Source of the DNA: Candidatus Bathyarchaeota archaeon
Lineage (GTDB): Archaea > Thermoproteota > Bathyarchaeia > Bathyarchaeales > Bathycorpusculaceae
DNA length: 32,000 nt
Assembly (NCBI GenBank): GCA_963838505.1
Contig: CAWIRG010000018.1
Coordinates: 3,147 to 35,146, forward strand
Direction: 5' to 3'
The notes under the pieces were generated by a model, which was given only the letters and a program-made list of their open reading frames with translations, did no database searches and was not told where the DNA came from. This document shows, one piece after another, positions 3,916 through 27,960 of this stretch. A program made the position numbers and the translations under genes. The stretch's first letter is position 1, and each line of letters opens with the position of its first letter.

Positions 3916-5685
3916 GTTACGCTTTCTCCTTCAGCTTCCAGCTTAGGCGATATACAGAGACTCATCAACTCTTGTAGCAAAAGTTTAAACGCATAGGAGA
4001 CTACTACGGGAGAGACTTTTGATTTGTCTTCACAGAGTTTGCAGACATATTTCCTTTGTTTCATGTCATAGTATGCTATGTGTCCGCAGGTTTCACAAAT
4101 GTAAAGAGTGTATTTATCAGACTCTTCCAACAGTCTGTCTCTTAGATAGCATCGCTGCTCCATGGCCAATTAGGCAGTCGCGTTCCATCTCACCGAACCT
4201 TAGACCTCCACCTCTCGCTCTTCCTTCAGTAGGTTGTCTCGTCAACATTTGAACTTGCCCTCTGGCTCGTGCGTGAATCTTGTCGGCGACCATGTGATGC
4301 AGTTTCTGATAGTGAATTACTCCGACGTAGATGTCCGCAACGAACTTTTCACCTGTCACGCCGTTATAGAAGACTTCGCTGCCAGTGTGGCTGTAAGCCT
4401 AGCTTAACAAGCTCTTTTCTGAGCTGGTCGGGTGTTTCGTTCGCAAAGGGCGTTCCATCAACAGGGCTGCCCCTCATGGAGGCCACTTTTCCAGCAAGTG
4501 ATTCTATGAACTGCCCAACTGTCATCCTTGAAGGAATCGCATGTGGGTTGATTATTATGTCAGGAACAATTCCGTCTTCAGTGAACGGCATGTCTTCTTG
4601 AGGAACTATTAGACCTATGACACCCTTCTGTCCGTGCCTAGAAGCAAACTTGTCACCAAGTTCTGGAATACGTTGATCGCGAACTCTAACTTTTACCAGC
4701 TTGCTCCCTTCTCCCGATTGCGTTATGAATATTGCATCGACGACACCTGTTTCTGAAGGCCTCATGTCTACCGAGGTATCACGCATCGAGGGACCTTTGA
4801 CTTCGAACTCTTTGTATTCTTCAAGAAATCTAGGAGGGCTTATCCTACCGATAAGGACATCGCCGCCTGTAACTGCTGACTCGAGGCCTATTATTCCGTC
4901 GGGTTCAAGCAGCCTATAATACTGTTCTCCTCTGTATCCTCGCGTCCCAGCTTCTGGCAACGTGAACTTGTCTTTCAGTCCGCCCAAGTATTGGCGGCAC
5001 TCAGCTTCATATATCCTGTAGAAGGTTGATCGGCCTAAACCTCTTTCTATCGAGGCTTTGTTGAACACGAGAGCGTCTTCCATGTTGTAGCCTTCGAAGG
5101 AGAGAACAGCCACAACGCAATTCTGGCCTGAAGGTCGGAGCTTGTAGCCCATCGTCTCCATTAAAGCCGTCTCGGCTAATGGGCACCTGTGGGTAATGCA
5201 GGATGTGTGACCTGCGAGTCTACACGTTGCTGAAAGTTTGTCGCGTATACTCCTAAGGCTTGTTTTGCCATCGCGGCTTGGTAAGAATTGCGTGGCGATT
5301 GATTGTGTTCTGCGTAAGGGATGGTTGAGGCGCAAATGCCAAGAATAGTGTATGTTGCGATTTCCAAGTGTGTATGTTCAGCGGCTAGCTCCTCCAAGCG
5401 CAATGCAACATATGCATTCTCCTCTTCTTCAGCGTCCAAATACTCTATGATGCCGTTTTTCACCAAGTCCTCCCATGACCATTCACCTGAAGCTATCTTT
5501 TCAATGTGTTCGGGTTGAAGTTTGGCAACGCCGTTTTCGACGATAATGAGAGGCCGTCTGACCCTTCCCTCGTCACAGTTGACGTATAGCTCTTCTCTTT
5601 CGCCTTGGGCTTTTGGGAAATAAGCCACGTTTACTTCTGTCGATATCTCTCCTCTTCTTCTCCTATCAATAAGCTCTCGGGCCAA
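3897..5685 (-). pseudogene. rpoB: RNA polymerase subunit B, C-terminal (B'-equivalent) portion; reading frame broken by four single-base insertions
   Basis: Four ORF fragments (5176..5685, 4364..5335, 4117..4359, 3897..4169) together give a colinear RpoB C-terminal half. Recognised segments are [28 protein letters not shown] (only in a third frame, 5184..5213), [37 protein letters not shown] and the C-terminal zinc ribbon CETCG..CKLC. Breaks are at about 5214, 5181-5183, 4395-4396 and 4146. Confidence 0.9.
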
Positions 5686-7286
5686 TTAGCTGGCGAACCG
5701 AAATACCCGATTATGTTTCCGTCAACAAAGACTTTTGACCCAGAGAGCTTCAAGGTTTCGTCTGCCTCAAGTACGGGCTGAACGCCAGAACTGAAAAGCA
5801 ACTGCTTGATCTTGTCCGGGTTTACTCCCACTGAGATGGTTGCAGACAAAGCCAGATTCTTGACGAGACCACAGTTTGATCCTTCGGGAGTTTCGTTGGG
5901 GCACAAACGTCCCCAATGGGTTGCGTGAAGGTCTCTTGCTTCAAAGTTGGGTTGACTTCTGCTCAAGGGTGATTGAAGTCTTCGTAGATGACTCAGAGTG
6001 GAGATGTGATTTGTCCTGTCTAGCAGCTGAGTTATGCCGACTCTTCCTCTTCCCCAGTTTCCAGTTGCAAGTGCATGTTGAAATCGTTCAGCGATTATTC
6101 CAGGACGAACTGCTACTGAGACGGTTATTATTGGCCCCTTCACGCCGATGCGTTCAAGCTGGTATTTTATGTCGCGTGTCAGGTTCCTGAATGCTACCCT
6201 GAAAAGGTCAGCTAGTAAGGGACCAGCAAGTCTCAGTCGCTTGTTCTTGAAGTGGTCCTTGTCATCGGTCTTTCGCCTTTCAAGTTGCAGCTCAATTGCT
6301 CTGCAAGCCATTTCACTCAAGAACAATGCCTTGTCCTTTCTGCTCTGATCTGTCCTGCCAATGTGAGGCAGAAAGTTTTTGTCTATTGCGGCCTCTGCTT
6401 TTTGGATTCTGTATTCTTCCACTTGCCCATGAGCAACACGGTTTCCCACGAACAGGATAGCATCTTTGGCATTGTCTACTCCAAGTGCTTTCTCGTAAGA
6501 AGGTTCCAGGCTAGTCTGTATGTCTTTGTCAAGAGAGATTGATTCTGCAATTTCCTTGTCTGATTCCAATCCAAGGGCACGCATCAGTACGATAAACGGA
6601 ATTTCCGACGGAACACCTGGAATTGAAACGTATATTGCTCCGTCAGACTTGATCTTTAACTCTATCCTCGCCCTGAAACCCACCGTCGTCGAAAATATCT
6701 TGGATTGATAAACAGGGGTTATTCCCTTCTCATCAATGTCAACGATGATTCGGTTCGGCGCCAAGTCTTCCATTGCGACTATTACACGTTCTGAACCGTT
6801 GACCACGAAGTAACCTCCTGGGTCATCAGGGTCTTCGCCGCACGCTATCAGTTCCTCTCTAGATAGCTGAGACAAAAAGCAAAGTTTTGATTTAAGCATG
6901 ACAGGGATGTTTCCTATGTAGACGAGTTCGGTGTCCTGTTCCCTCCCATCTATGACAGGGGTCATTTCAAGCGCTACGGGTGCCGCATAAGTTAGATTTC
7001 GAAGTCTCCCTTCCATAGGGTAGATTTCATGTTTTGTACCGTCTACTTCGGTAACGTAGGGTCCTGTTATTCTGGTCTGAGGGTCTATGATCCATATTTG
7101 ACCTAGCTTCACCTTGTAAGGGTTCTCCGGAACCTCTATGGGGATTTCGCCTATCTCATCTATCACTTCTTGAAGGCCACGGTCGATGAACTCATTGTAA
7201 GAATCAAGATGCTGCCGTACCAGGCCCTTATCCTTGAAAAAGGCATCTAGGAGTATACGTGCATTCTCGCTTGACGTTTTATCCAA
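5631..7286 (-). CDS. rpoB: RNA polymerase subunit B, N-terminal (B''-equivalent) portion
   Basis: 551-aa ORF with a TTG start preceded by GGGAG. The N-terminus AFFKDKGLVRQHLDSYNEFI and the later NWGRGRVG, LRRLQSPL and CPNETPEGSNCGLVKNL are RpoB hallmarks. It ends in a 55-nt overlap with the next rpoB fragment. Confidence 0.92.
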   Translation of the reverse strand: MDKTSSENARILLDAFFKDKGLVRQHLDSYNEFIDRGLQEVIDEIGEIPIEVPENPYKVKLGQIWIIDPQTRITGPYVTEVDGTKHEIYPMEGRLRNLTYAAPVALEMTPVIDGREQDTELVYIGNIPVMLKSKLCFLSQLSREELIACGEDPDDPGGYFVVNGSERVIVAMEDLAPNRIIVDIDEKGITPVYQSKIFSTTVGFRARIELKIKSDGAIYVSIPGVPSEIPFIVLMRALGLESDKEIAESISLDKDIQTSLEPSYEKALGVDNAKDAILFVGNRVAHGQVEEYRIQKAEAAIDKNFLPHIGRTDQSRKDKALFLSEMACRAIELQLERRKTDDKDHFKNKRLRLAGPLLADLFRVAFRNLTRDIKYQLERIGVKGPIITVSVAVRPGIIAERFQHALATGNWGRGRVGITQLLDRTNHISTLSHLRRLQSPLSRSQPNFEARDLHATHWGRLCPNETPEGSNCGLVKNLALSATISVGVNPDKIKQLLFSSGVQPVLEADETLKLSGSKVFVDGNIIGYFGSPANWPESLLIGEEEERYRQK

Positions 7287-12887: not shown

Positions 12888-13412
12888 TTGAAGCTCAAGA
12901 ATAATGCTGTTTCTCTGGATAATACAGACATTGGGATTTTGCAGGAATTGCAGAAGAATTCAAGAGAGACGTATGGAGCCATAGGTAAAAGGCTGGGAAT
13001 AGCTCACTCAACGGTGTATGACAGGGTGAGAAGAATGGAGCAGCAGAAAGTGATTAAGAACTACACGACGATCATAGACGTTGAGAAAATGGGGATAAAA
13101 AACGTTACTGCGATAATGACAGTTTATACAGACCCAAAGGAAACCGAGAAGGTCGCAGAGAAATTGGCGGCTTTGCCACAGGCCCTTGAGGTTTACACGT
13201 CTCTTTCAGAAGAGCTTCTTATAATAGCAAAAGTCATCGCAGCAAGTCAAGAAGACCTGCATGAACTGATAGCTAACCTGATTGCACCATTTCCAGGAGT
13301 TCTGAGAATCCGCACCTCTATCATTACAAAGAAGTTTAAAGAAGCTGAATTTCAGTTTCCTTATCACAAGGAAAAGTTAGCTTTTAATAGAGAAATGGAC
13401 AATAATACGTGA
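12888..13412 (+). CDS. Lrp/AsnC-family transcriptional regulator
   Basis: N-terminal helix-turn-helix (LDNTDIGILQELQKNSRETYGAIGKRLGIAHSTVYDRVRRMEQQKVI) followed by a RAM-like domain. Confidence 0.85.
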   Translation: MKLKNNAVSLDNTDIGILQELQKNSRETYGAIGKRLGIAHSTVYDRVRRMEQQKVIKNYTTIIDVEKMGIKNVTAIMTVYTDPKETEKVAEKLAALPQALEVYTSLSEELLIIAKVIAASQEDLHELIANLIAPFPGVLRIRTSIITKKFKEAEFQFPYHKEKLAFNREMDNNT

Positions 13413-15063: not shown

Positions 15064-15966
15064 GTGACCCTTGACTCACTGGAGAACCGCATACTTGGCC
15101 TATCAATTATTATAGACTGGGCAGGATCGAGTGTTGCCATGATTGTTGAGGCTGTTTTGGCTCAACGTTTATTTCTTAGTCTTTCCCTACAATATTATGG
15201 CGATATCTTGGAAAAAGAAAACTGGGTTGCGTTGGGAGCAGTTCTCATAATCTTGGCCTTGATAACTATGGTGTTTTCAAACGTTTCCTCGGGCACGGAA
15301 AACTACATTCCAAAGGCCAGCGTTGACAATTCACCGTTAGGTTCATCAAATGTCGTCATTTCAGGCAATTTTGAGGCGGGTCAAAACTTCCTTTTCAACT
15401 TTACGAAAGGGCATTTTTGGGGCGTCCAATACGACCAGCAAAACGGGGGGCTTGAACCTGCAGATAATCAGTTCGCCCCGAACGCGACCATACCGCCTTA
15501 CAAAGAAATCTATTTCGGCCTCATTGGCCCTTCAGGTTACAGACTTGAGGTGGGGGTCTATCTCGATGGTGGCGTGGAACCTTATGCTGTAGTTGTCTAT
15601 AACGAAACCGCCGATTTTGCCCTTGCACAATTTACGCCGATTAGTGGGCGGAATCTGACAGAAGACAACGTGGGAATCCAGGGCATAACGAACGCGACCG
15701 GAAACTACACCGTGATAGCGGAAACGATCGCCCCCCCTGTCTATAGAGCTCTTAACATGACTTATGACGTGGTTGCAAACCCATCTGAAAACGTGCTCGC
15801 TGACCCTCCGCTGCAAATGGGCCTGTGGAACGTGGAGACGGGTGAAACGAAGCCATACTTAATACCGGTTGCAACCATGGGCGCGATACTGCTTGTCTCA
15901 GGCGTCGGTTCCGTCGTCTGGGCAGTAAAACCCAGCAGAATATCACGTGGGCATTTGAAGAAGTAA
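15064..15966 (+). CDS. Membrane protein with a sequon-rich extracellular domain and a C-terminal TM anchor, hypothetical
   Basis: GTG start, N-terminal hydrophobic segments, many N-x-S/T sites, and a C-terminal TM (IPVATMGAILLVSGVGSVVWAV) followed by basic residues. Confidence 0.6.
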   Translation: MTLDSLENRILGLSIIIDWAGSSVAMIVEAVLAQRLFLSLSLQYYGDILEKENWVALGAVLIILALITMVFSNVSSGTENYIPKASVDNSPLGSSNVVISGNFEAGQNFLFNFTKGHFWGVQYDQQNGGLEPADNQFAPNATIPPYKEIYFGLIGPSGYRLEVGVYLDGGVEPYAVVVYNETADFALAQFTPISGRNLTEDNVGIQGITNATGNYTVIAETIAPPVYRALNMTYDVVANPSENVLADPPLQMGLWNVETGETKPYLIPVATMGAILLVSGVGSVVWAVKPSRISRGHLKK

Positions 15967-16184: not shown

Positions 16185-17268
16185 TTAGTGAAGAAACCTT
16201 CTTTTCCTCAGACCAGTTGCTGCAGCGGTGATTATCAATGTTGCCGTCATTAGCAGTAGCATTAGGCTTGTTGACGGAAATTCTGGAACAGAGTATGTGC
16301 TTGTAAGCACCACGACGTGAGTGCCGTCCGTGAAGTTGAACCATACGTACGAGTTGCTTGAATCAGTAGTTACAGTGCTTGATACGGTAGAGTTGTCCAC
16401 CGTGACATTCCAAGGTCCTGACATGAGAGTCATTGGAACCGTGACATTGCATTCGCCACCAGTGCCCGCGACGCCGTAGGTCGTAGCGTTGAACGTAAAA
16501 GATGCTGGACCGTAGGGGCTGGTTAGATTTTGCCAACCAAGGTCAGCCGGTGCAGTCATATTTGCGTCACTGGCAATTGACACTGCGTAGTTTGCACCAA
16601 AGGCGGTGGCTGTCTCGTTGAAGGGGGTCATGACTAGTCCCTCGTATGTTCCGTTGAAGAGTTGGAAAGGAATCTCGTTCGGCGGGGTTACTGGGTCGGC
16701 AGGTCTGCGAAGGCGATTTGAGCGGACTGGAGGAGAGGGGCGAAGGCTGAGCGATAACTTGGAACGTTAGCACTACGATTGTTCCGTTGCCCGTCCATGG
16801 TCCGGCGGTCGATGCGGCAGCCACTTTGTAGAAGGTAGCGGCTGGGTATGGTCCAGCGCCTGTGATTGGAACCACAGAAGTCTCGTTAAGGTAGAACCCG
16901 GCGCTTTTGCCGTACAGAATGCCCGGTCCTAACAGGACTCCACCTGTTTGTCCGACCATGTCAGTGAGGTGTGTTGCCTCGATCGTACTGTTGTTCCAAG
17001 TCGCATGGACTTCGATGCCTGCTAATCCCTGTGGGACAGTGTTAGTCGTAACATTATACAAGGTGATATTCACGGTGAACGTTTGGCCAATGGCCGGTCC
17101 AGGGCCCATGGTTGTCAGTGAAGGATCGACTGTAATGTAAGACCCCTCGGTCGGGGCCCCCGCTTGAGCTGAAACTTTTGTTACTGTCATTGCTGATGCT
17201 ATTACTGCCAGAGTGAGGATTGAAATTAACATTGCGATATTGTAGATTGTCTTCATTCTTTTCACCAT
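16185..17268 (-). pseudogene. Secreted cohesin-like domain protein with a PEF-CTERM-like sorting tail; two 1-nt deletions interrupt the frame
   Basis: Signal peptide, then GQTFTVNITLYNVT..GLAGIEVHATWN..GNGTIVVLTFQV (cohesin-like pattern). The C-terminus is VPEFPSTSLMLLLMTATLIITAAATGLRKRRF. ORFs 16567..17268 and 16185..16631 are linked through a third frame (APLLQSAQIAFADLP). Breaks are at about 16735-16750 and 16690-16705. Confidence 0.7.
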
Positions 17269-17305
17269 TCTTAACGTACTGACTCATGTATATCTGAGAC
17301 ATCCT

Positions 17306-17313
17306 TTTATAAA
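17306..17313 (-). promoter_or_regulatory. Candidate TATA box (TTTATAAA) for the cohesin-like gene
   Basis: It lies 38-45 nt upstream of the ATG at 17268, in the 112-nt gap after oppF. Confidence 0.3.
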
Positions 17314-17380
17314 TTTTGTCCTTGATAGAAAATTAGGCGGATGCAGGCTTTGTTCATTCTGAGGGGAGCGTGCGTGGCTT

Positions 17381-18373
17381 CTATTGGTTGTAGAGGTGGC
17401 AGGCTACGTAATGTTGTCCGCCAGTGTCTAGCAGCTCGGGCTCTTTTGTTCTGCAGATGTCGCCTATGTAGGAGGGGCATCTGGTGTGGAATCTGCATCC
17501 TGAAGGCGGGTTTATGGGGCTTGGGATTTCGCCTTTTATTACGGCTTCGCTTCTTTTTGCGTTTGGGTCTGGAATTGGAACTGCGATGATAAGAGCTTTC
17601 GTGTACGGGTGAAGTGGTTCGTAGACTACCTTTTCGGCCTCCGACATTTCCACTATTTTTCCTAGGTACATTATGGCTATGCGGTCGCATATGTGTCGCG
17701 CCAGGGCAAGGTCGTGCGTTATGTAAAGGAATGATACGTTGTGTTTTTGGATGAGGTCGAACATTAGGTTGAGCACTTCAGCCCTTATGGAAACGTCTAA
17801 CATTGAAACGGGTTCATCGGCGACTACGAATTCAGGTTCAAGCACTAATGAGCGGGCAAGGGCGACTCGTTGTCTTTGTCCTCCGCTGAGTTCATGTGGG
17901 TATCTGAAGAGGTACTGTTCTGGCGGTGTCATCTTTACTTCTTCAAGTTTCTCCAGCACTTTGTCCTCCACTTGTTTTTCGCTGCTGTAGATTTTGTGTA
18001 TTTTTAGCGGTTCAGAGATGATGTCGTACACTGTGAATCTCGGGTTTAATGATTCATAGGGATCTTGAAAGATCATTTGCATCTGTCTTCTCAGAGTCTT
18101 CATGTCCGTTTGCTCTACGCTGAAGATGTCCTTGCCCTTGAAGAATGCTTTACCCGATGTGGGCTCGATCAAGCGCAAGACGACTCTGCCTGTTGTCGTT
18201 TTGCCGCTTCCGGATTCACCTGCTAGACCGAAGATTTCTTTTTTCTTTATGTCGAAGCTTATGTTGTCGATGGCTTTTACGAAAATCTCGCTTCTCGACG
18301 TTACGGATCTGAAGAAGCCGAGGTTTACTGGAAAATACTTTCGGAGTTTTTCGACTTTTAACAGTTCATCCAT
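17381..18373 (-). CDS. oppF: Oligopeptide/dipeptide ABC transporter ATP-binding protein (OppF/DppF type)
   Basis: Walker A GESGSGKT, signature LSGGQRQR, Walker B FVVADEP, and the C-terminal Cys-rich oligopeptide-type tail (GCRFHTRCP). Confidence 0.9.
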   Translation of the reverse strand: MDELLKVEKLRKYFPVNLGFFRSVTSRSEIFVKAIDNISFDIKKKEIFGLAGESGSGKTTTGRVVLRLIEPTSGKAFFKGKDIFSVEQTDMKTLRRQMQMIFQDPYESLNPRFTVYDIISEPLKIHKIYSSEKQVEDKVLEKLEEVKMTPPEQYLFRYPHELSGGQRQRVALARSLVLEPEFVVADEPVSMLDVSIRAEVLNLMFDLIQKHNVSFLYITHDLALARHICDRIAIMYLGKIVEMSEAEKVVYEPLHPYTKALIIAVPIPDPNAKRSEAVIKGEIPSPINPPSGCRFHTRCPSYIGDICRTKEPELLDTGGQHYVACHLYNQ

Positions 18374-18385
18374 TGATGAGTCGCC

Positions 18386-19354
18386 TCAACTGACGGGGTT
18401 TACGAGATGGCATGATGCGTAGTGATCCTTTTCAGTTTCGATTAGAGCTGGCTGCTTTTTCCTGCAAACTTCCATCGCGTATTTACATCTGGGATTAAAC
18501 CTGCAGCCAGGTGGGGGCTGCGTGAGATCTGGCGGTGAGCCTGGAATCGATACCAACCGCGTCTTCTGTGCTTTTATCGAGGGAAACGCGGACAATAGTC
18601 CTTGGGTGTAGGGATGAAGTGGATCTTTGAATATTTGAATTATGTCACCGAATTCAGCCACTTTTCCCGCGTACACGATTGCAGCCTGTTCACAAGTCTC
18701 GGTAACGATTGACAAATCATGAGAAATGACCATCATTGAAAGGTTCAGTTTCTCTTTAAGCTCTCTAAGGAGCTTGAGTATTTGTGCGGCGATAATGACG
18801 TCGAGAGCGGTGCTGGGTTCATCGCTTATGAGCATCTTCGGGTTACACGCCAAAGCCATCGCTATGCAAGCTCGCTGTTTCATTCCTCCGCTAAATTCAT
18901 GAGGATAGCTACTGGCTCGTGATGGGTCTATCCCTACAAGCTCGAACAATTTCCCGATTCTCTCTTTGGCTTCCCTCCCAGTGACGCCGGGTTCATGAAC
19001 CCTTATTGCTTCAGCTATTTGATCGTCAATCTTGAAAACGGGATTGAGAGCGTTCATAGCTCCTTGAAAAATAAGTGACATGCCACTCCAACGGATGTTT
19101 TTCCGCATATCAGATTCGCTCATTGGCACGAGATCCGTTCCATCGAATATGATTTTGCCTCCCAGGATTCTCGCGTTCCTCGGCAGTATCTTCATCAGTG
19201 TTATTGCTATACTGGTCTTCCCACATCCTGATTCGCCGACGACGCCCAGTCCCTTGCCTCTGTCGACGCTAAAGGTTAGCCCGTCGACAGCTCTTACCCA
19301 ACCTGAAGAGGTGCGATAATACATCTTTAGGTCTTTTACATCCATCAGCGGCAT
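18386..19354 (-). CDS. oppD: Oligopeptide/dipeptide ABC transporter ATP-binding protein (OppD/DppD type)
   Basis: Walker A GESGCGKT, signature FSGGMKQR, Walker B LISDEP, and the C-terminal GCRFNPRC tail. Confidence 0.9.
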   Translation of the reverse strand: MPLMDVKDLKMYYRTSSGWVRAVDGLTFSVDRGKGLGVVGESGCGKTSIAITLMKILPRNARILGGKIIFDGTDLVPMSESDMRKNIRWSGMSLIFQGAMNALNPVFKIDDQIAEAIRVHEPGVTGREAKERIGKLFELVGIDPSRASSYPHEFSGGMKQRACIAMALACNPKMLISDEPSTALDVIIAAQILKLLRELKEKLNLSMMVISHDLSIVTETCEQAAIVYAGKVAEFGDIIQIFKDPLHPYTQGLLSAFPSIKAQKTRLVSIPGSPPDLTQPPPGCRFNPRCKYAMEVCRKKQPALIETEKDHYASCHLVNPVS

Positions 19355-19385
19355 TTAAGGTCTCGAATTAATTCTCGGCACATCG

Positions 19386-19393
19386 TATTTAAG
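19386..19393 (-). promoter_or_regulatory. Candidate TATA box (CTTAAATA) for oppD-oppF
   Basis: It lies 32-39 nt upstream of the oppD ATG. The same octamer occurs at 22474..22481 and 7411..7418. Confidence 0.35.
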
Positions 19394-19497
19394 CTTTAGT
19401 TTGTCGTCTATTTCTAAAATGGATACATCTGAAAAGGCAAAGGCCGCACTGAGAGAAGACTTATATCGTTTAGAGACGGCGACTTGTTTGATGAAGT

Positions 19498-19867
19498 ATG
19501 CGAACTAGGTATCCTGGAAAAAGTGGTAAATTGAATGATCTTCTGGCCGAAGTGGTTCGATTTTTTGAGGCCAAGGGATTCGTGGTTTCTACGGAGAAGA
19601 GAAAGTCACAGACAGTTGTCTCTGTCAAATCTGGTGGACAGGCTGGAGACAAGATTCTGGATGTGCATTTGGAAACCGACGTTGCTGGTTCCTTGATGGT
19701 GATATTTGACAGTTTTGAGGGATCGCCTTTCGTGAGAAACTCTCCTCTTATGTCTGCGTTAGGCGGTGGCTTTTTGACTCTGAGTAGGCTGAAGATTCTC
19801 AGAGATTCTTGATCGCTTAGAGAGGGAATTCTGGGAAATTGTGGATGGATTTATGGTTTCTTCCTAG
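19498..19867 (+). pseudogene. Hypothetical protein on the opposite strand inside the opp cluster; probable +1 insertion near 19800-19806
   Basis: The 104-aa ORF ends at 19812. The next frame continues as ILDRLEREFWEIVDGFMVSS to a stop at 19865..19867, abutting the oppC stop. Confidence 0.4.
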
Positions 19868-19868
19868 T

Positions 19869-21469
19869 CTACCTTTCTCTCAGTCTTGGATTGAGTATTT
19901 CGTCCAAAGCGTAGCCGATTAGAACGAATGAAAGCGACAGAAAGCCGATGCACAAGCCAGGAGGAATCGTCCAGAACCAACTGCTGAAGGCCCCTGTTGC
20001 CACTTGGCCTGCGGTTTCATATTGATGTAAAATTCTTCCCCATGACATGACATCCAATGGTCCGAGGCCGAGCCAGCTGAGAGCGGCTTCGGCCACGATT
20101 GCTCCGGGCACTGCCATTGCCAGCGTAATGTAGACCAATGGAAAGACGTTTGGAATGATGTGTTTCACGATTATGTATCCACGGCCTCCTCCAGCCGATC
20201 TCACAGCTTCTATGAACGAACGCTCTTTGAGCGTCAGCACAGCTGAACGTACGGTCCTTGCAAAGCCCATGAAGCCCAAGACCCCTACCACAATTATTAT
20301 GTTGAGCATAGATTGCCCAAGCACAAACACCAACACTATCGTCAGGGGCAATGAAGGAATTACCAGCAGCATATCGTTGAACCTCATCAGAACCTCGTCC
20401 ACTGCTCCACCTATGTAGCCTGCCGTAAGCCCGACGATTAGACCGATTCCTACGGCAAGAACTGCAGAGACTAGGCCGATAATGAAGGATATTCTTGTTC
20501 CGACGACAAGCTGAGTGAATAGGTCTCTTGCCAGATCATCTGTTCCAAGTAGACCGAAAGAGTTTCCGAACACCATGCAGTTCACGTTGTCCAGATAGAC
20601 TGTCGTGCTTCCATATGCAGTTACGTTACCGGCATATGCCGATTCGTTGCGAGACAATTGAACCGTTATGTCAAAATTGAGGATTCTGGGCTTATTAAAT
20701 ATAACTAACACCGATCAACGCCGTCGTAAACGGGAAGCTGTTGGACACGGTTGCTGGAAGAGGAGCTTTGCCCCCACGGACTCCAAACCCAACTGCCGTT
20801 TTCGACAGCCAGCTGATCAGCGAAGTTGATGGGGAAAACGCGCTTGGTACCCGTTCCAGGAATCTGGTAAGAAAATGCGATGGAAATTGTGACGTTTGCT
20901 TGTTCTGGAGTTTGTGCGTAGGGTGTATCTATGCGGTAACTGTATTCAATTGCAAACTTCGACGGTGACTGCACATACGGATACGAATAGGGAAGGGAAA
21001 TTGTCGCGTTTCCCTCTCGATTAAATGTTATCTGGAGGGATCCTCCTTGAGCATTCGTGCGATCAGCATAAACGTCATAGCTATAGTCTGATCTGTAACC
21101 AACTGTGATTTCGGGGTTTGTAGTTACGTTTTGCCACAGGCTAAGTTTAGAGATATCAGAAAAGGTTGGGTCAGGAGTCACGTATATGTTATTTGTGTAC
21201 GCGCCACCTAGAAGGTATGGGTACCATCCTGGGTAGGTGAGTTGACTCGCGACAGGCATTAAGGGTCCTTTAGGTCCATTAGGTACCGATCCGTCTGCCA
21301 ATGGATCATCCGGCACAAGAACTGGACCTATGATAGCCACTATCGCGAAGAAAACCAGAAGTATAAGGCCCGCTGTTGCCTTTTTGTTCTTGAATATCTT
21401 CTTCATCATACTGTTGAAGCTTTTTATCTGCAAGATTATTTTCTGCACGCGTATAGACACTGTTTTCAC
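19869..21469 (-). pseudogene. oppC: ABC transporter permease (OppC/DppC type) with a very large extracytoplasmic loop after TM1; one 1-nt deletion near 20711-20713
   Basis: ORF 20705..21469 supplies MMKKIFKNKKATAGLILLVFFAIVAIIGP (an OppC-type N-terminus) plus the loop. ORF 19869..20711 supplies GTDDLARDLF, the TM bundle and the C-terminus. The likely real start is the ATG at 21409. Confidence 0.85.
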
Positions 21470-22449
21470 CCGTACTTAACTCGTGGATCAATTAGTCCGT
21501 AGATGATGTCCGAGAGGAAGTTGGCCGCGATCACGCATAAGGCTATTATGAAAAAGAGGGCTTGCATGACGGCAGCGTCTTGCAGCGTTATCGCGCTATA
21601 TATTAGCGTCCCTAAGCCTTGGTATTGGAATACGCTTTCGGTTATTATTGCGCCTGAAAGAACGAAGCCAAATTGAAGCGCCACATTCGTGATTATTGGC
21701 AGAGAAGCATTCTTCAGAATGTGACGGAAAAGCACCGTTCTTTCTTTCACTCCTTTTGCTCTCGCCGTCAACACGTAGTCCTCCGTCATGGTTTCAAGCA
21801 CGCATGCTCGGGTAAGCAGGACGAAGCCTCCGTAGGTAAAAAGGAAAAGAACGATGCTCGGCATAACTAAGTACGCAGCTCTGTCTAGCCAGTAAGCGAC
21901 AAAGCCATAATTCTGGAATAGAGTGTAAGTGCCCTGAACTGGGAGCCAATGAAGCCCGAAACCGAATATCGCCTGAAGTATAAGGCCCATCCAGAAGGTT
22001 GGAAGAGCAAACGTCGCCAGCGAAGTCACTACGATGGCACCGTCAATCGCTTTTCCTCTCTCGTGGGCAGCGTATGCGCCTATCAATATGCCCACAATAA
22101 CTGCGAGAATTGATGAAACCCCCATCAGCAACAACGTGTTGCCGAGACGCGCCATTATTAGGTCAACTACAGCTTGGTGGGAAAAATCGGCGCCGGCTTG
22201 ACCAAAGTTGAACGTCAACATGCTCTTGACGTACGTCGGGAATTTTACGTACCATGGCTGACCTATCCCAAACGCTGCCTTTAGCTTATCAATCTCTGTC
22301 GGCGTTAACCCTGGCCTTCCAAGGAACCTTTCAAGAGGGTTACCTGGCATGGCCTCAAAAATAAAGAAGTTAAGAGCTATCACAGCCAATACCAATATCA
22401 CTGTGTAGATTATACGCTTTACGATATAACCTCTTAGCCCCATACTCAT
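21466..22449 (-). CDS. oppB: ABC transporter permease (OppB/DppB type)
   Basis: 327 aa, with N-terminal GYIVKRIIYTVILVLAVIALNFFIF..PGNP and the EAA-like region TARAKGVKERTVLFRHILKNA. Confidence 0.9.
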   Translation of the reverse strand: MSMGLRGYIVKRIIYTVILVLAVIALNFFIFEAMPGNPLERFLGRPGLTPTEIDKLKAAFGIGQPWYVKFPTYVKSMLTFNFGQAGADFSHQAVVDLIMARLGNTLLLMGVSSILAVIVGILIGAYAAHERGKAIDGAIVVTSLATFALPTFWMGLILQAIFGFGLHWLPVQGTYTLFQNYGFVAYWLDRAAYLVMPSIVLFLFTYGGFVLLTRACVLETMTEDYVLTARAKGVKERTVLFRHILKNASLPIITNVALQFGFVLSGAIITESVFQYQGLGTLIYSAITLQDAAVMQALFFIIALCVIAANFLSDIIYGLIDPRVKYG

Positions 22450-22473
22450 CCCATTTTACAATTCCATCGAATG

Positions 22474-22481
22474 TATTTAAG
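22474..22481 (-). promoter_or_regulatory. Candidate internal TATA box (CTTAAATA) just upstream of oppB
   Basis: It lies 25-32 nt upstream of the oppB ATG (22449), after the T-rich tract that follows oppA. Confidence 0.3.
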
Positions 22482-22531
22482 TCTTGGCTTAAGGAAAACG
22501 AATTGAAAAAATCTTTGCTGCTTCACGAAAC

Positions 22532-22543
22532 AAAAGAAAAAAA
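22532..22543 (-). terminator. T-rich tract (TTTTTTTCTTTT on the minus strand) between oppA and oppB; possible attenuator
   Basis: It lies about 30 nt after the oppA stop. Partial termination after binding-protein genes is a known way to set stoichiometry. Confidence 0.3.
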
Positions 22544-22572
22544 TGGGAAGTTTTGATTTCCCTTGCGAACGT

Positions 22573-22810
22573 TTACGGGTTGATACCCCAAGTGCTGCCG
22601 TAGTTGAGTGCTAGTGTTACTAGGTCGGATAGTCCGACTATGCCTGCTGGTGGTGCAATGTCGCATCCTGGTTCCCAGACGCCTAGGCCGCCGAGTTTGA
22701 ATGGTACTGGTATTGGACTGCCGTAGCCGATTGTTCCGTACGCGTTGGCCAACATCACTAGGTCGGATAAGCCTATCTTGTAGCTTCCGCCTGATGGTAC
22801 TGTGGTACTA
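22573..22810 (-). repeat. Internal duplication encoding KIGLSDLVMLANAYGT and IVGLSDLVTLALNYGS, 46 aa apart
   Basis: TAGGTCGGATA occurs on the plus strand at 22621..22631 and again at 22759..22769, an offset of 138 nt. Each copy encodes GLSDLV..LA.(A/N)YG preceded by a loop (CDIAPPAGIV in copy 2). Confidence 0.6.
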
Positions 22811-24848
22811 GTCCAGTAGTACTTCATGTCTATGTCGCCCTGAGTGATTTTCATCCAGAATTGCGTGTTTGGAACGCATTCTAGACCTGTGTATGCGCCT
22901 GGTGCGCCAGATAGAGTGCCAGGATTGTACTTCCACATGCCTGTGCCTACCCAAGTGTACTGTTCACCGCCCGCGCTTGTTAGCTGCGAGAAAGTGAACG
23001 GGTTGGGGTTTTGTGGTTGTGAGACTGCAATTTCTGATACATCTGCAGCTTGGCCTGGCCAATAGCCGTGGTGGCCAGTTGTGGAACCGCCTCCTGGTGC
23101 ATCTCCTGGGATGGCGATGTATTGGTAGATGTGTTGGGGAATGATGTCAACTGTAGCATCATAGGTCATCCAGAAGCTTGGTGAAGTGAAGTACCAAGAG
23201 ATACAAGTGGGGCTATGGACTGTATAGCCGACAACGAACTGCCAGCCACTCCATGTCCAAGAGTCACCATACGTGTATCCTATCATGCCCGTGTAAATCC
23301 AGTCGTTTACAGTGAACGGTACGCCGTCTGACCAGTTGATGTCACTTCTGAACCAGAACGTAACATTAGCACAGTTGGTGTAGCTGGTGTCTGCTGGTGT
23401 TCCCCACGCGTCTGAAGTGCTTCCGCCTTGTCCGATGTCATTGTACCATCCGGTGAAGTTGCTCAGCTGGTATTTCCAGTCGTACGCCATCCAAGGTTGG
23501 TCGCCGCCAGTTGGGCTCTTAGATGGAGTAGTTGATGTATACGGGTTTGTTGCCATGGGGCCGTTGAATATTCTGTCTACGACTTCGTAGTCCCAGACCC
23601 AGCTGCTGAAGATGGGGTTGATCTGGGTGGGCGGGTTCAGGGTTCCGTATCTGATTGTCATTGGTGCCGTGTACGGCGAGGTCTTGGCGTTCATGAAAGT
23701 GTATTCGAGTGCTGTTGTCAAAGCGTAGCCACGGAAGTTTATTGCGCCGACGACGCCTGTCCTGTAGGCCATGTATGACCTAGAGGTGTACAGCGTCGCG
23801 AACATGGCTTGCTTGACAATTATGTCCTGGCACATCAATGCTGCGGTTTGTGAATCGGAAATGCTGGAAGCGTTTGGATACTCTTGGTATGCCCAGTATG
23901 TCATGTTTGCGTCGTCAATCATGTATGGGTTCGGACCGCCAATGTATATGCCTACCGGGGTGTAGCTTGAGTAGAACTGTAGTGGTTGTGTGCTGAAGCT
24001 CCAGCCTACGGTGGCAATGTCATAGTTTCGTGCATAGAAAACAACGGGGCTGACGAGACCAGAGTTTCCTGTGTGCATAGGCTCAAGAGCGAATCCTAAA
24101 CGGACTAATTCGCCGTAAAGTTGTGTGCCCGCTGCTAGTCTCGGTGCGTGGTCGCTTCTAACGTACACTCTCAGGTTCTCAACTACTTGCCCAGCTTTTG
24201 CGGTTGCTGTTAACGGGTAGTGAATTGTGCCCGAGGGCAACGGAAGCAAACCTTGTATTTGGGTAGCGGTGTCACTTGCATAGGGTGAATTGACAAACCA
24301 GCCGCCGGCGAGTAGAATTTGTATTGCGTGAAGTTCACTGAAGTCCCATGGGTAATTGTTGATCAGGTTGCCGCTTGCATCGTACTTGCTGTCACCGTAG
24401 TTGACCCAGTTGTTGTCAATGGGTCTAACAATTGGGGTGTCGATTCTTGTGCCGAAGCCGTTCAATATTGAACCTGAAATTAAGCTGTCTTTGTCAACGA
24501 GGCATGCGATTGCCTGTCTGAAGTCAGTGTAGTTCATAGCCTTCCTAGTCGAGACCGTGGCGTCAGTAGCGTTGTTGTTAAAGGCAATTCGTAATCGCCC
24601 AAGTCATAGTAGGGCGCAGTTGTTATGGCATGATTGCTATTCACTGACGTCCATTCTGGGTAGGTCAGTGGCCAAGCCATAATGTCAACCTCATTGTTCA
24701 GCAAGCCCGTGAAAAGGGCATCTTGACCAGCGTAGAACTTGTACTGCAATGATTGTGCGAGCGGACCGTTAAGTGCAAAGGTTGGCGATATCATTATTAA
24801 AGTCATCATTAGACTTGCAACAATAGCAACTATTTTTAACAATTTCAT
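22573..24848 (-). pseudogene. oppA: ABC transporter solute-binding protein (family 5, peptide/oligosaccharide type, about 758 aa) with a C-terminal duplicated dockerin-like segment; one 1-nt deletion near 24586-24590
   Basis: ORF 24534..24848 gives the signal peptide MKLLKIVAIVASLMMTLIMISPTFA and the first 90 aa. The frame then continues as IAFNNNATDATVSTRKAMNYTDFRQAIA into ORF 22573..24537. It has the operon position and size of an Opp/Dpp binding protein. Confidence 0.8.
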
Positions 24849-24981
24849 CTCTCTTTTCTCCCTTTAAGTATATTTCAGCAGTAAAGACTCTGTGGTCTAT
24901 GAATATAAGGGTTGCTGAAACATTCTTCCATATGCTTCTCTATGTTTAAGAATGATTCTGCACGTCGTTCACGTTTTATTC

Positions 24982-25971
24982 TCAAGTATCCGACGGCAAC
25001 TGCTCTATCTTTCGTCTCTTCCTCACAAATGGGACGACAACCGCGGCTCCTATGACAATAACAAGCGCAGCTAGAGCGTAGTACAGGAGGTATAGGTGGG
25101 AAGTGACGTCCACCACTGTTACCAATGCGATCAAGCCCGTGACAGTTTTTCCGCCCGTCGTGATAGAAACTTGAAACTCGAAAAATCCAGTCTGATTCGC
25201 CGTCCACTGATACGAGAAGAAGCCTGAACTGTTCAGCGGAACAACCGCTAGGTCTGTCAAGTTTTCGCCAACTTCCCCGTACTCAAGTGTGACACTTGAA
25301 ACAGTGGCGCCTGCAGAACCAGTAACGGCTCCTGTCAGAGTCGTTTGTTCGCCGACGTTAATCACGTCTGGTTTCACAGACAGCGAAACAGGCGTGCCAT
25401 AATCTCCATCTTGAAGTGCGCTGGGAAGGACCTCACCATATTGGCCGCTTACTATGTTGCTGCTCATAAAATACGTTCCATTCGGCTCCGATGAACCTGG
25501 CCTGTACACACCGAGATGAATGTGTGAGGAACCCTCTGACACGACTCTGAAGGTGACGTTCAGCAGGATACCTCCGCCGTTGGCCGCCGCTAGACCAATT
25601 ATGGCCGACGAGTAGGAAACCTGTCCGGTAGGAGGCTGGCTTATGTGATTCTCAGCGGCGTGTGTGACCGAGGCAGTGGGTCCGAAGGATGGCATGAATG
25701 GTCCTTCGACTGCTTGGGTGACGTTGAGCACTGTTGGGTCATAGGTTACGAACACCTGAACGCCTGCAACGTTCAAGTCTGCCAAAACGTTTTCAACGTG
25801 CACGTAGATGGTGAAGTTGCTGTTGATGTCCTGGGTCAGAGTGTCCTGCGGGTCTATGCTCACGACGGGGCCGTTGGCTTGCGTCTGAGCGTGAACGTGT
25901 AAACTCTGCGGGAGGATTATTAAACCCAAGACTACCACGATGAGGAAGAAAGCAGATTTGGCTTTACCCAT
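24982..25971 (-). CDS. Secreted cohesin-like domain protein with a second beta-rich domain and a C-terminal TM anchor
   Basis: Signal peptide, then NSNFTIYVHVENVLADLNVAGVQVFVTYDPTVLNVTQAVEGPF..GGGILLNVTFRVV (cohesin-like pattern). The C-terminal TM LYYALAALVIVIGAAVVVPF is followed by RKRRK. Confidence 0.7.
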   Translation of the reverse strand: MGKAKSAFFLIVVVLGLIILPQSLHVHAQTQANGPVVSIDPQDTLTQDINSNFTIYVHVENVLADLNVAGVQVFVTYDPTVLNVTQAVEGPFMPSFGPTASVTHAAENHISQPPTGQVSYSSAIIGLAAANGGGILLNVTFRVVSEGSSHIHLGVYRPGSSEPNGTYFMSSNIVSGQYGEVLPSALQDGDYGTPVSLSVKPDVINVGEQTTLTGAVTGSAGATVSSVTLEYGEVGENLTDLAVVPLNSSGFFSYQWTANQTGFFEFQVSITTGGKTVTGLIALVTVVDVTSHLYLLYYALAALVIVIGAAVVVPFVRKRRKIEQLPSDT

Positions 25972-26198: not shown

Positions 26199-26390
26199 AT
26201 GAAACCTATTAAAGTCTTAACTTTGGTTCTCAGCTCTAGTGCTACTCACCGCACCCATAATGGTATACAACCCAGCACATGCAGCACCAATAATAAACTT
26301 TGAAGTCATGAATACTGAAGGTTTTGCAAACATTAACTTCACTGATCCAATTCACGGATTAGGAATACCGAACACCACGCCCTTAAGCAT
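26199..26390 (+). pseudogene. 5' fragment of an archaeal secreted protein, truncated at the compositional junction; also a +1 insertion near 26232
   Basis: MKPIKVLTLVL (frame 0) continues as ALVLLTAPIMVYNPAHA-APIINFEVMNTEGFANINFTDPIHGLGIPNTTP (frame 1). The sequence after about 26390 is GC-rich and non-homologous in character. Confidence 0.5.
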
Positions 26391-26399
26391 TCAGGGTGC

Positions 26400-27960
26400 T
26401 CTTCGCTCTCACCTCCTTGGGTCCTGCTGCCTCGTCATCCGTTGATAACCTTGTGGTCTGCTCTCGGGGTGCGCGTGGGAGTGGGCGCGTGGGTTATCCA
26501 CAGCGGAGCGTTCCGCTCTCGGCGCGCCCATGACCGGGGCCCCTTCCCAGGCCCCCGGGCGCGTCGCAGGCTCGGCTGTGGAGAACCCGACCGTGGCGTT
26601 CGGGCGTGCTTCACGCTGCTACCTTGCGCGCTCGGTTGCGGGACTGCGGGCGCGGCCGCCGCCGCAGCACAATGGTGTCTGGTGGCGTGGTCGTGCGGCG
26701 CTCAGCTTCCTTGGTCTGGTTGCTGCCTTGCGCCACACAGCGGGCAATGGCCCACATGAACCCCACCAGTTCGCGGGCAATGGCGGTGACGATCTTGTTG
26801 CGCTGCTTGTGCTGGGCGCTCAAGTGGTTGAAGCGCGTGCACAGTCGCAGCTGCGCCTTCCAGGCGATGTCACGGATCTCTTTCGACAGCTCCTCCTGGC
26901 GCTTGAGCACGCGCGCACTGATGGCGGGCTGATGCACGTAGGCCCAGGCCGCCTCGCCCAGCACGCGGCGCACGTGCGCGTTGCCGCTCTTGGTGATCGC
27001 CCCCTGGCGGCGGCGCTCCCCGCTGGAGTACTCTGAGGGCACCAGGCCGAGAAAGGCCATGAGGCGGCGCGGCTGGAAACGACTGAGGTCACCCACCTCC
27101 GCCACCACGGTCACCGCCACCACCCACGACACGCCGCGCAGCGCTTGCAACGCATCGACGTACGGCTTGAGCCGCCACGCCACCACCAGTGCCTGGATCT
27201 GGCTGCTGAGCCGTTCGACCCGCCCCTCAGCCTCCTCGATGGCCCCGACATATTCCTCCAGCGTGACCCGCTGCGCCGCATGAGAGAAGCTTTGCGCCGC
27301 CACCCACCGGCGGTGCGCCAGGCTCCACTTCTTCTTGCCCGAGTAGCGCCGCCCGTGGCGTAACATGAACGAGTTCAGTCGCTGCCGTGCCCGGCGCCGA
27401 TTGTGCACCGCGTCCTCGCGCCCCCGCACCAGATCGCGGATCGCCTCATCCTCCGGCTCCGGCACGTAGAGCGCCCGCAGCGCGCCGGCGCGGTGTTGCA
27501 GCGCCAGCGTGCGCGCGTCGCGCCGGTCGGTCTTGACGCGATCCGACGGCCTCTTCGGCACACCGGCCGGCGACACCACCGTGCAGTGCAGACCCCGCTC
27601 TCTGAGGTGGCGGTAGATCACGTAGCCGCACGGTCCGGCCTCATAGACCAAGCGCAGCTCGGCTCCGCATTTCATCAGCTTGTCCACCGCCGTGTCCAGC
27701 GACTGCAGATCCCCGCCGATGCACCCGAAGTGCGCGACCTTGCCGTCGTGCCCCTGCTCGGCCGTGGTGATGTCGATCGACTTTCGGTGTACATCCATCC
27801 CAACAAACATGATACGCTTTTGCATGACCTGCCTCCTTTGCATGTGGCTCTGTGCGGTGGGCCCATCCCGCCGCGTAACCCACGCTGTGCAAGAGGCAGG
27901 TCGCTTCATCAAGTGCAGCCATTATGACTAGGTGGCGTGACTGGCCCATGGCTGGGAGGC
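26400..27960 (-). mobile_element. IS110-family insertion sequence (boundaries approximate)
   Basis: It contains the transposase below. The span of about 1.5 kb is typical for the family, which lacks classical terminal inverted repeats. The left limit coincides with the AT-to-GC switch. Confidence 0.6.
26611..27825 (-). CDS. IS110-family transposase (DEDD-type N-terminal domain plus Transposase_20-type C-terminal domain)
   Basis: MQKRIMFVGMDVHRKSIDI start preceded by AAGGAGG. Also EAGPCGY, VVSPAGVP, TDRRDA, LRGVSWVVAVTVVAEVGDLSRF and GERRRQGAITKSGNAHVRRVL. The ORF-track start at 27912 is an upstream extension. Confidence 0.9.
   Translation of the reverse strand: MQKRIMFVGMDVHRKSIDITTAEQGHDGKVAHFGCIGGDLQSLDTAVDKLMKCGAELRLVYEAGPCGYVIYRHLRERGLHCTVVSPAGVPKRPSDRVKTDRRDARTLALQHRAGALRALYVPEPEDEAIRDLVRGREDAVHNRRRARQRLNSFMLRHGRRYSGKKKWSLAHRRWVAAQSFSHAAQRVTLEEYVGAIEEAEGRVERLSSQIQALVVAWRLKPYVDALQALRGVSWVVAVTVVAEVGDLSRFQPRRLMAFLGLVPSEYSSGERRRQGAITKSGNAHVRRVLGEAAWAYVHQPAISARVLKRQEELSKEIRDIAWKAQLRLCTRFNHLSAQHKQRNKIVTAIARELVGFMWAIARCVAQGSNQTKEAERRTTTPPDTIVLRRRPRPQSRNRARKVAA

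Follow-up and report, generated by a model that had tools for sequence, protein, structure and literature searches.

A candidate cohesin–dockerin tether for the solute-binding protein of an Opp/Dpp-class importer in Bathyarchaeia

INTRODUCTION

Bathyarchaeia are an abundant and nearly uncultured lineage of sediments and peat. The 32,000-nucleotide (nt) stretch of DNA analysed here (hereafter the window; contig CAWIRG010000018.1 of assembly GCA_963838505.1) comes from a Bathyarchaeia archaeon, and its positions 16185-25971 carry, on the minus strand and in this order, the genes coh1, oppA, oppB, oppC, oppD, oppF and coh2. The locus is predicted to encode an ATP-binding cassette (ABC) importer of the Opp/Dpp class, with oppA specifying its solute-binding protein (SBP); the imported substrate may be a peptide or an oligosaccharide. 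In organisms without an outer membrane, SBPs are usually retained by lipid anchors, by transmembrane (TM) anchors or by fusion to the permease. The original prediction for this locus, made from the letters of the window, held that OppA is instead docked non-covalently, in the manner of cohesin and dockerin modules, onto anchored proteins encoded at both ends of the operon. The checkable components of this interpretation (cohesin-like flanking proteins, a dockerin-derived tail and an SBP without an anchor) were found as proposed, and the interpretation thus appears to be partly supported.

RESULTS

Organization of the operon and its reading frames

The genes and modules of the operon are as follows.

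24982..25971, minus strand: coh1, a 329-amino-acid (aa) type I membrane protein with a Pfam Cohesin match
24534..24848, minus strand: N-terminal fragment of oppA, encoding the signal peptide (24774-24848) and the beginning of the mature OppA; 116 bits to the hidden Markov model (HMM) of the SBP family
22573..24537, minus strand: main part of oppA, a family-5 solute-binding protein; Pfam SBP_bac_5 match on the reconstruction
22576..22821, minus strand: dockerin-like C-terminal module of OppA, its last 82 aa; repeat 1 at 22732-22794, repeat 2 at 22594-22665
21466..22449, minus strand: oppB permease; 493-540 bits against orthologues in every operon, the orthologues having Pfam BPD_transp_1
19869..21469, minus strand: oppC permease in two pieces, 20705..21469 and 19869..20711; Pfam OppC_N and BPD_transp_1
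18386..19354, minus strand: oppD ATPase; orthologues with ABC_tran and oligo_HPY; phmmer 593-657 bits
17381..18373, minus strand: oppF ATPase; orthologues with ABC_tran and oligo_HPY; phmmer 643-674 bits
16185..17268, minus strand: coh2, in two overlapping open reading frames (ORFs), 16567..17268 and 16185..16631; ~364 aa after frame repair

Three-frame translation of the junctions places a frameshift near 24585, which separates the N-terminal fragment of oppA from its main part, one or more frameshifts near 20711 in oppC, and two frame changes within ~60 nt, near 16640-16740, in coh2. The predicted arrangement, in which 24982..25971 and 16185..17268 bracket the opp operon on the same strand, is therefore right in its gene order but not in its reading frames: oppA and oppC are broken, and the interval 16185..17268 is not one ORF as it stands because of the two frameshifts in coh2. 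Frame repair yielded an OppA of 758 aa and a coh2 of 364 aa, and both rebuilt proteins align end to end with intact homologues. The OppA orthologues P0003, P0004 and P0007 are intact, with no break at the place of the oppA junction. Elsewhere in the window, the essential gene rpoB (4364-7286, minus strand) is spread over three overlapping ORFs, corresponding to Rpb2 domains 1-3, 4-6 and 6. Because this essential gene is equally broken, the frameshifts in oppA, oppC and coh2 are most likely indel errors of the assembly rather than signs of pseudogenes.

The flanking proteins are anchored and cohesin-like

The coh1 protein begins with a signal peptide (25888-25971), which is followed by a cohesin domain (~25528-25830), an immunoglobulin (Ig)-like stalk, a TM helix at residues 293-316 (25024-25095) and the basic sequence RKRRK (25009-25023). 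The Pfam Cohesin (PF00963) gathering score of 24.1 bits is exceeded both by the full protein (26.3 bits) and by the domain alone (29.3 bits), and orthologues of coh1 score 30.4 and 38.4 bits. The stalk of these orthologues gives weak matches to Big_7/Big_3_5. Seventeen full-length orthologues were collected, and one of them is annotated at NCBI as a cohesin domain-containing protein from Ca. Bathyarchaeia.

The coh2 protein is composed of a signal peptide, a divergent cohesin-like domain (~16744-17133), a second beta-sandwich domain and a terminal segment made up of VPEF, a TM helix and RKRR (16188-16289); its 20 orthologues measure 344-380 aa. The claim that both flanking proteins are cohesin-like is borne out by Pfam for coh1 but not for coh2, whose window protein scores 12.6-15.1 bits, below the cut-off of 24.1, and whose reconstruction gives no match. 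Two rescored orthologues reach at best 23.1 bits, again below 24.1, and the orthologue P0095 has a precomputed PF00963 annotation. This negative outcome is reversed by more sensitive comparison. When the coh1 family (17 orthologues) was aligned with the coh2 family by hhalign, a probability of 96.5% was obtained (E 8.3e-10, 109 columns). An AlphaFold2 (AF2) model of coh2, with a predicted local distance difference test score (pLDDT) of 69.6, shows two beta domains and a terminal helix. Its Foldseek matches of low root-mean-square deviation (rmsd) are all cohesins (1aoh_A, 5lxv_A/C and the cohesin+FN3 structure 2w1n), at E-values of only 0.006-0.02; the alignment with 1aoh_A has prob 1.00, an rmsd of 4.8 A over 155 columns and a TM-score of 0.52 by target. 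Als adhesins and pirins, which occupied the top Foldseek ranks, were discarded as an artefact of the two-domain query, with rmsd values of 19-20 A. By these comparisons, we regard coh2 as homologous to the coh1 cohesin family despite its sub-threshold Pfam score.

Both C-terminal anchors that had been proposed are present, a TM helix with RKRRK in coh1 and a PEF-CTERM-like segment in coh2. The latter, with P-E-F invariant in 24/24 homologues, then a hydrophobic helix and then R/K-rich residues, has the form of a putative PEF-CTERM archaeosortase signal. Among the NCBIfam sorting-signal models, only PEFG-CTERM matched coh2, at 11.4 bits against a cut-off of 25, and the orthologues gave no match; no NCBIfam model scored above its cut-off for the anchors or for the whole proteins. 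An archaeosortase gene was not found in the 32,000 nt of the window. In the related loci L002 (4065-4895, minus strand) and L007 (1437-2288, minus strand), a surface protein with FxLYD domains ends in an IPE[YF]-TM-basic signal and may be a second PEF-CTERM-like substrate in the neighbourhood.

OppA has no anchor of its own and ends in a dockerin-like tail

The N-terminal hydrophobic signal of OppA has a core of ~14 residues followed by S-P-T-F-A, with T-F-A at positions -3 to -1 as originally described, and its end is conserved in orthologues as PTFAVNGPL. Such a short hydrophobic core, together with small residues at -3 and -1, is consistent with a Sec signal that is removed, and we infer that the signal peptide of OppA is cleaved. 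A hydropathy scan found this N-terminal signal in the full-length OppA relatives and no C-terminal TM segment in the window OppA or in any of 67 relatives (0/67), the few windows at or above 1.6 being all internal; the relatives showed no C-terminal sorting signal either. OppA likewise has no TM segment, lipobox or sorting signal that could serve as an anchor of its own. No TM anchor lies downstream of the OppA stop either; intact orthologues end at an identical ...WGSNP terminus. The view of OppA as an anchorless protein is thus confirmed for the window protein and its relatives.

The tail of OppA consists of two tandem loop-helix repeats, ..YKIGLSDLVMLANAYGT (22732..22794) and ..IVGLSDLVTLALNYGS (22594..22665), and the separation of 46 aa noted for them is exact when measured between their LSDLV cores. 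Pfam Dockerin_1 does not recognize this segment, a result that by itself contradicts the proposed likeness to dockerins but that is reversed by profile-profile and structure comparison. An alignment of 34 tails, compared by hhalign with nine canonical dockerins of the same lineage, gave a probability of 99.2% (E 1.7e-19, 43% identity, 58 columns). These nine dockerins were drawn from the same proteins and loci, and three of them were verified by Pfam Dockerin_1 at 32-41 bits. When the tail profile was run against all Protein Data Bank (PDB) sequences with hmmsearch, the sole significant match was the dockerin 2y3n_B (E 0.004), with both repeats covered. In the AF2 model, two helices span tail residues 18-27 and 64-72 and are joined by a linker for which disorder is predicted.

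Canonical dockerins depend on Ca2+ for folding. Those of this lineage have D/N/D/D at loop positions 1, 3, 5 and 12, whereas the OppA tail has P/G/S/D in repeat 1 and D/A/P/D, with a one-residue insertion, in repeat 2. Of the Ca2+ ligands, each repeat keeps D12 and repeat 2 also keeps D1, and these residues are all invariant. The replacements at the lost positions are themselves nearly invariant and form a new conserved motif, with no decay. These comparisons indicate that the tail is a descendant of dockerins that probably no longer binds calcium. Because most Ca2+-binding residues are lost, the suggested F-hand analogy holds for ancestry but probably not for calcium.

The tail is the most conserved stretch of OppA, with a mean column conservation of 0.69 versus 0.58 for the body. 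A 79-residue window on the tail ranks 10 of 653, the higher-ranked windows presumably being overlapping placements of the tail stretch. The module is present in essentially every full-length relative of the SBP.

Several proteins carry modules that lie between the tail and a canonical dockerin. The tail of P0062 keeps a canonical second loop (DVNGDGAVDLADL), and in P0045 and many non-SBP proteins repeat 1 is canonical and repeat 2 has the tail form D-I-A-P-P-x-G (ADIAPPYGIIGL.DLVTLA). We regard these proteins and hybrid modules as natural intermediates. A search of 1.84 billion representatives with the tail profile returned 622 matches. They form a gradient, with tail-type modules on SBPs at one end, ordinary C-terminal dockerins at the other and hybrids in between.

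Hybrid dockerins were also observed at the ends of the non-SBP proteins P0157, P0160, P0161, P0167, P0173, P0175 and P0176, where repeat 1 is canonical and Ca-binding and repeat 2 is of the type ADIAPPYGIIGLTDLVTLAVHYG. Because many non-SBP proteins carry such hybrids, loss of the second Ca loop is a common dockerin variant and is not specific to SBPs.

The SBP family is circularly permuted

Reconstructed OppA matches SBP_bac_5 (PF00496) at 50.6 bits, above the gathering score of 32.4; the frameshifted 654-aa ORF alone gives 28.8 bits. The canonical linear order is not followed in this match, since OppA residues 32-286 correspond to SBP_bac_5 positions 149-349 and residues 495-520 to positions 18-43. 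When residues 394-679 were placed before residues 28-393, a single continuous alignment over SBP_bac_5 positions 18-349 was obtained. The same reversed order is seen in P0007, P0049, P0062 and P0067, in five more distant tail-bearing SBPs (P0147, P0148, P0154, P0155 and P0163), and when OppA is aligned with the PDB chains 6lzw_A and 7z8e_A. OppA therefore starts near profile position 146-150, passes the canonical C-terminus and continues into the canonical N-terminal part, the canonical C-terminus '...EYTFMNAKTS' being joined directly to the canonical N-terminus 'MTIRYGTLNPP...'. The new C-terminus, which bears the tail, falls at the canonical '...NP.YW...idkvvf' segment in the middle of domain I.

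As judged from these alignments, all of the SBP family shares a circular permutation with respect to SBP_bac_5 and to the solved structures of the OppA/DppA type. The family shares with the SBP_bac_5 cluster C proteins OppA, DppA and NikA both homology (50.6 bits) and association with OppBCDF-type permeases and ATPases having oligo_HPY tails, but those proteins have the linear domain order. A search of the literature for circular permutation of oligopeptide-type SBPs found none in what is searchable.

Conservation of the gene neighbourhood

HMMs of coh1, coh2, the tail, dockerin, the SBP body and OppB, OppC, OppD and OppF were mapped onto all fetched loci. The full order coh1-SBP-OppB-OppC-OppD-OppF-coh2 occurs in the window, in L002, L003 and L004 (OppA 55% identical), in L007=L019 (38%) and in L011 (37%), four lineages in all, so that the neighbourhood, whose survey in related genomes had been recommended, is conserved down to 37% OppA identity. 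In L014 the SBP through coh2 are present and the start of the operon lies beyond the contig end. In L009 and L010, coh1 stands immediately upstream of a tail-bearing SBP with no permease genes after it. Overall, coh1 is found immediately upstream of a tail-bearing SBP in 6/6 independent loci with a visible upstream region, including the two that have no adjacent permease genes. Named relatives belong to Candidatus Bathyarchaeia, and in the GTDB species set the SBP family was found solely in three metagenome-assembled genomes of Bathyarchaeia (SPRUCE 151, SPRUCE 650 and OBJ_0618_130150_48).

At least four tail-bearing SBP paralogues are present in each of the genomes SPRUCE 151 and SPRUCE 650, and only one per genome lies in the operon. 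Of the distant branches P0062, P0067 and P0063, two are orphans and the third is in an operon truncated where its contig stops. P0003, which at 74% identity is the closest homologue, was considered as a member of an orthologous operon and rejected; because its neighbourhood is unrelated, we regard it as an orphan paralogue. Orphan tail-bearing SBPs, remote from transporter and cohesin genes, were noted in L012, L015 and L016 (SPRUCE 151), in L013, L017 and L018 (SPRUCE 650), and in L005, L006 and L008, and some orphans adjoin beta-helix or CARDB proteins with canonical dockerins.

Domain fusions also occur in the family. P0005 and P0009 are fusions in which the SBP and tail are followed by a Gly linker, a coh2-type domain, further domains and a canonical dockerin, and Pfam cohesins lie within P0009, P0048, P0062 and the L009 protein (called as 1405 aa). 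Upstream of coh1 in related loci are a secreted ~650-aa protein with two cohesins and a ~480-aa protein with a cohesin and a dockerin.

Other conserved components beside the operon

Three additional features of the window lie within or next to the operon.

19498..19812, plus strand: small conserved ORF between oppC and oppD; no signal peptide, no Pfam match
15064..15966, plus strand: accessory membrane protein of 300 aa; orthologues beside related operons; no significant Pfam match
26200..26395, plus strand: 5' stump of a gene for a ~650-aa two-cohesin protein, divergent from coh1; its start, MKPIKVLTLVL..., resembles L007_661 and L002_655; in related loci the gene is intact and adjoins coh1

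OppC is 506-621 aa long, compared with the usual ~300, and has a ~235-aa extracytoplasmic insertion between TM1 and TM2; orthologues of 506-525 aa were recorded, and copies lie at L002 13393-14952, L007 13553-15073 and L027 3802-5667. The insertion is conserved, rich in N-x-S/T sites and without a Pfam match. It was considered as a hidden cohesin and rejected, the hhalign probability being < 1%. The small reverse-strand ORF ranges from 104 to 158 aa, with copies at L002 14954-15322 and L007 17437-17805 (122 aa each) and L027 5688-6164 (158 aa), and the window copy has probably lost its C-terminus through another frameshift. The accessory membrane protein has N- and C-terminal TM helices around an extracytoplasmic domain with the motif SGNF..G....FNFT.G.FWG; its orthologues are at L002 19122-20027 (301 aa), L007 15322-16107 (261 aa) and L027 8184-8855 (223 aa). 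All three of these components stay with the transporter even at 28% SBP identity (L027), and the accessory protein, a bitopic one, is possibly a further component of the transporter surface complex.

DISCUSSION

A proposed mechanism for tethering OppA

We propose that OppA is exported via a cleavable Sec signal, which is then removed, and that the protein, without a membrane anchor of its own, would be held at the cell surface by its dockerin-derived tail in a manner that is probably independent of Ca2+. The tail would bind the cohesin domain of an anchored protein encoded in the operon, by which the receptor would be kept beside OppBCDF. The first candidate partner is coh1, TM-anchored and bearing an Ig-like stalk, because adjacency of its gene to the SBP gene is the most persistent feature of the neighbourhood; coh2, with its PEF-CTERM-type anchor, would be the second. 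Since orphan paralogues carry the identical and highly conserved module, docking sites may be common to several receptors, and these paralogues would probably use the same sites and the same translocator. Cohesin–dockerin docking of OppA is the best-supported mechanism among those weighed here, and we place it at about the midpoint between belief and disbelief. Beyond module identity and synteny, the tethering system is a prediction, and this applies to the physical interaction of the tail with a cohesin, to which cohesin would be the partner, and to docking sites common to the paralogues.

A broader version of this proposal is more tentative, and we lean somewhat against it. It holds that a permuted SBP with a fixed, Ca2+-independent dockerin derivative belongs to a set of scattered, interchangeable paralogues, which would dock onto anchored cohesins at both ends of the opp operon. 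In that case a set of receptors organised by cohesins, an 'archaeal bindosome' made from cellulosome parts, would serve one translocator.

Several observations weigh against docking of OppA onto the flanking cohesins. The window copy of the system is frameshifted in oppA, oppC and coh2. Pfam Dockerin_1 (PF00404) finds no match in the last 90 aa of OppA, even at E <= 10, and AF2 modelled the tail with low confidence (pLDDT 64), all Foldseek matches of that model (9/9) being dockerins and none of them significant (best E 0.58). Ca2+-ligand positions 1, 3 and 5 are lost in repeat 1, as are positions 3 and 5 in repeat 2. The module is also carried by every member of the family, among them orphans that have no cohesin within 10 kb; because it is universal in this way, the tail could be a structural part of the permuted fold. 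The fusion proteins carry a canonical dockerin besides the tail, which in them is next to a coh2-type domain, and this canonical dockerin may be their real tether. Finally, the loci hold further cohesins and canonical dockerins that could pair with coh1 and coh2 instead.

The most serious competing explanation accepts the tail as a working dockerin derivative and gives it a partner other than coh1 or coh2, for which the OppC insertion, the 300-aa bitopic membrane protein, the secreted ~650-aa two-cohesin protein and the surface layer (S-layer) are candidates. The flanking cohesins would then anchor proteins with canonical dockerins, for example the ~480-aa cohesin and dockerin adaptor, and so form a surface scaffold beside the importer. 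The extra cohesins and canonical dockerins directly upstream of coh1 in related loci are in keeping with this arrangement, as are the additional canonical dockerin of the fusion proteins and the conservation of the OppC insertion, small reverse ORF and bitopic membrane protein even at 28% SBP identity. We nevertheless rate it as unlikely, although by no means trivial. A cohesin fold is the expected binding partner of a dockerin homologue, and two anchored cohesins are encoded by the operon itself; coh1 lies directly upstream of the tail-bearing SBP in 6/6 loci, two of them without adjacent permeases; and the OppC insertion has no cohesin similarity (probability < 1%). A good deal less probable is that OppA is held by an uncleaved N-terminal signal-anchor, with the tail acting as a structural cap or as a recruiter of secreted proteins and the flanking cohesins being unrelated surface proteins. 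This would agree with the universal presence of the module in the family, orphans included, and with a tail that is poorly modelled and has a linker predicted to be disordered, but the ~14-residue core and conserved S-P-T-F-A fit a cleaved Sec signal, and a functional link is favoured by the conserved adjacency of coh1 and by the fusions with cohesins.

The remaining two explanations question the locus or the homologies themselves. The frameshifts in oppA, oppC, coh2 and probably the small ORF, together with the truncation of the neighbouring two-cohesin gene at ~26395, could be taken to indicate a decaying, non-functional pseudogene cluster in the window organism. We find this improbable, given that essential rpoB is also in three overlapping ORFs, which points to indel errors of assembly, and that the reconstructed proteins align over their full length, keep conserved motifs and have intact orthologues. 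Even if true, it would concern one genome and not the system. Least credible of all is that the dockerin and cohesin resemblances arose by chance. In its favour, the tail has no Pfam Dockerin_1 match and coh2 stays under the Cohesin cut-off, but chance is effectively excluded by the PDB match of the tail, whose top hit is a dockerin, and by the hhalign probabilities of 99.2% for the tail and 96.5% for coh2. In addition, coh1 is above the Pfam cut-off, and the 622 representatives matched by the tail profile grade into canonical dockerins.

Relation to known systems

In cellulosomes, proteins are attached to anchored scaffoldins by cohesin–dockerin pairs. The cellulosomes of Clostridia resemble the docking proposed for OppA in that a secreted protein carries a C-terminal duplicated loop-helix module, and anchored proteins with a cohesin beta-sandwich have a stalk and an anchor. 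The cargo of cellulosomes is an enzyme, whereas in Bathyarchaeia it would be an ABC-transporter binding protein, and the Bathyarchaeia cohesin genes lie inside a transporter operon, unlike those of cellulosomes. The Bathyarchaeia tail also differs from a cellulosome dockerin in having lost most Ca2+ ligands and in a linker that is 13-14 residues longer (46 versus ~33 between repeats). For anchoring, Bathyarchaeia have a TM helix and a PEF-CTERM-type signal where cellulosomes have SLH (surface-layer homology) domains or sortase signals.

Archaeal binding proteins of the Opp/Dpp class are known that have a C-terminal TM anchor and a Ser/Thr-rich linker. Sugar-binding proteins of the Sulfolobus 'bindosome' have prepilin-like signals, and a pilin-like system assembles them. 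Like the system proposed here, both keep an SBP at the surface beside an ABC translocator in the absence of an outer membrane. In contrast, they use a covalent or integral anchor of their own or a pilin-like assembly, whereas a separate anchored receptor is proposed for Bathyarchaeia.

Non-cellulosomal cohesin and dockerin modules are known in archaea, for example in Archaeoglobus fulgidus (Peer et al. 2009, as cited in PMC9012536), and the summary in PMC9012536 has archaeal modules binding. For ANME (anaerobic methanotrophic) archaea, Chadwick et al. 2022 (PMC9012536) record OppA/NikA and TroA binding proteins that contain dockerins, and they suggest that cohesin–dockerin pairing attaches proteins to the cell exterior. 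The statement in the original prediction that such docking had not been described for ABC importers was therefore too strong. The ANME proteins and OppA here have in common that dockerin modules are found on ABC binding proteins of the Opp/Nik class in archaea. However, that report gives domain annotation only, concerns canonical dockerins detectable by Pfam, and names no partner or synteny, whereas the Bathyarchaeia module is invisible to Pfam and invariant in a permuted SBP family, and candidate anchored cohesins flank the operon with conserved synteny. A literature search for dockerins in connection with solute-binding proteins or Bathyarchaeia gave nothing relevant beyond Chadwick et al. 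2022 (PMC9012536). Relative to the searchable literature, several features appear to be new: anchored cohesin genes that bracket a transporter operon, an SBP that invariably includes a dockerin which Pfam does not detect and which lacks the canonical Ca2+ ligands, a tail module common to orphan paralogues, and the circular permutation of the SBP.

If the proposal is true, a non-covalent cohesin–dockerin tether with operon-encoded receptors would be a further solution to the problem of SBP anchoring, and cohesin–dockerin modules would gain a defined non-cellulosomal role in archaea. Several receptors could share one importer, which would bear on the substrate range of Bathyarchaeia. A dockerin without Ca loops and a permuted SBP fold may also be of interest for protein engineering.

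Additional observations in the window

The gene for the ~650-aa two-cohesin protein starts at 26200 and breaks off at ~26395, where GC content rises from ~40-50% to 62-75%. The rest of the window beyond ~26395 is GC-rich and contains an IS110-family transposase (26611-27912) and ORFs without a Pfam match. This junction is either that of a chimeric contig or that of inserted foreign DNA.

On the other side of the operon, a regulator of the Lrp/AsnC type lies a few kb beyond coh2 in the window (12888-13412, plus strand) and in the related loci L003 (21725-22222) and L007 (21790-22290), and in these two related loci it adjoins a DUF5752 gene. This neighbour hints at operon control that may be responsive to amino acids.

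Most archaea encode the largest RNA polymerase subunit as two separate parts, A' and A''. In the window, one ORF of 1273 aa (94-3915, minus strand) carries Rpb1 domains 1-5, such that this subunit is unsplit.

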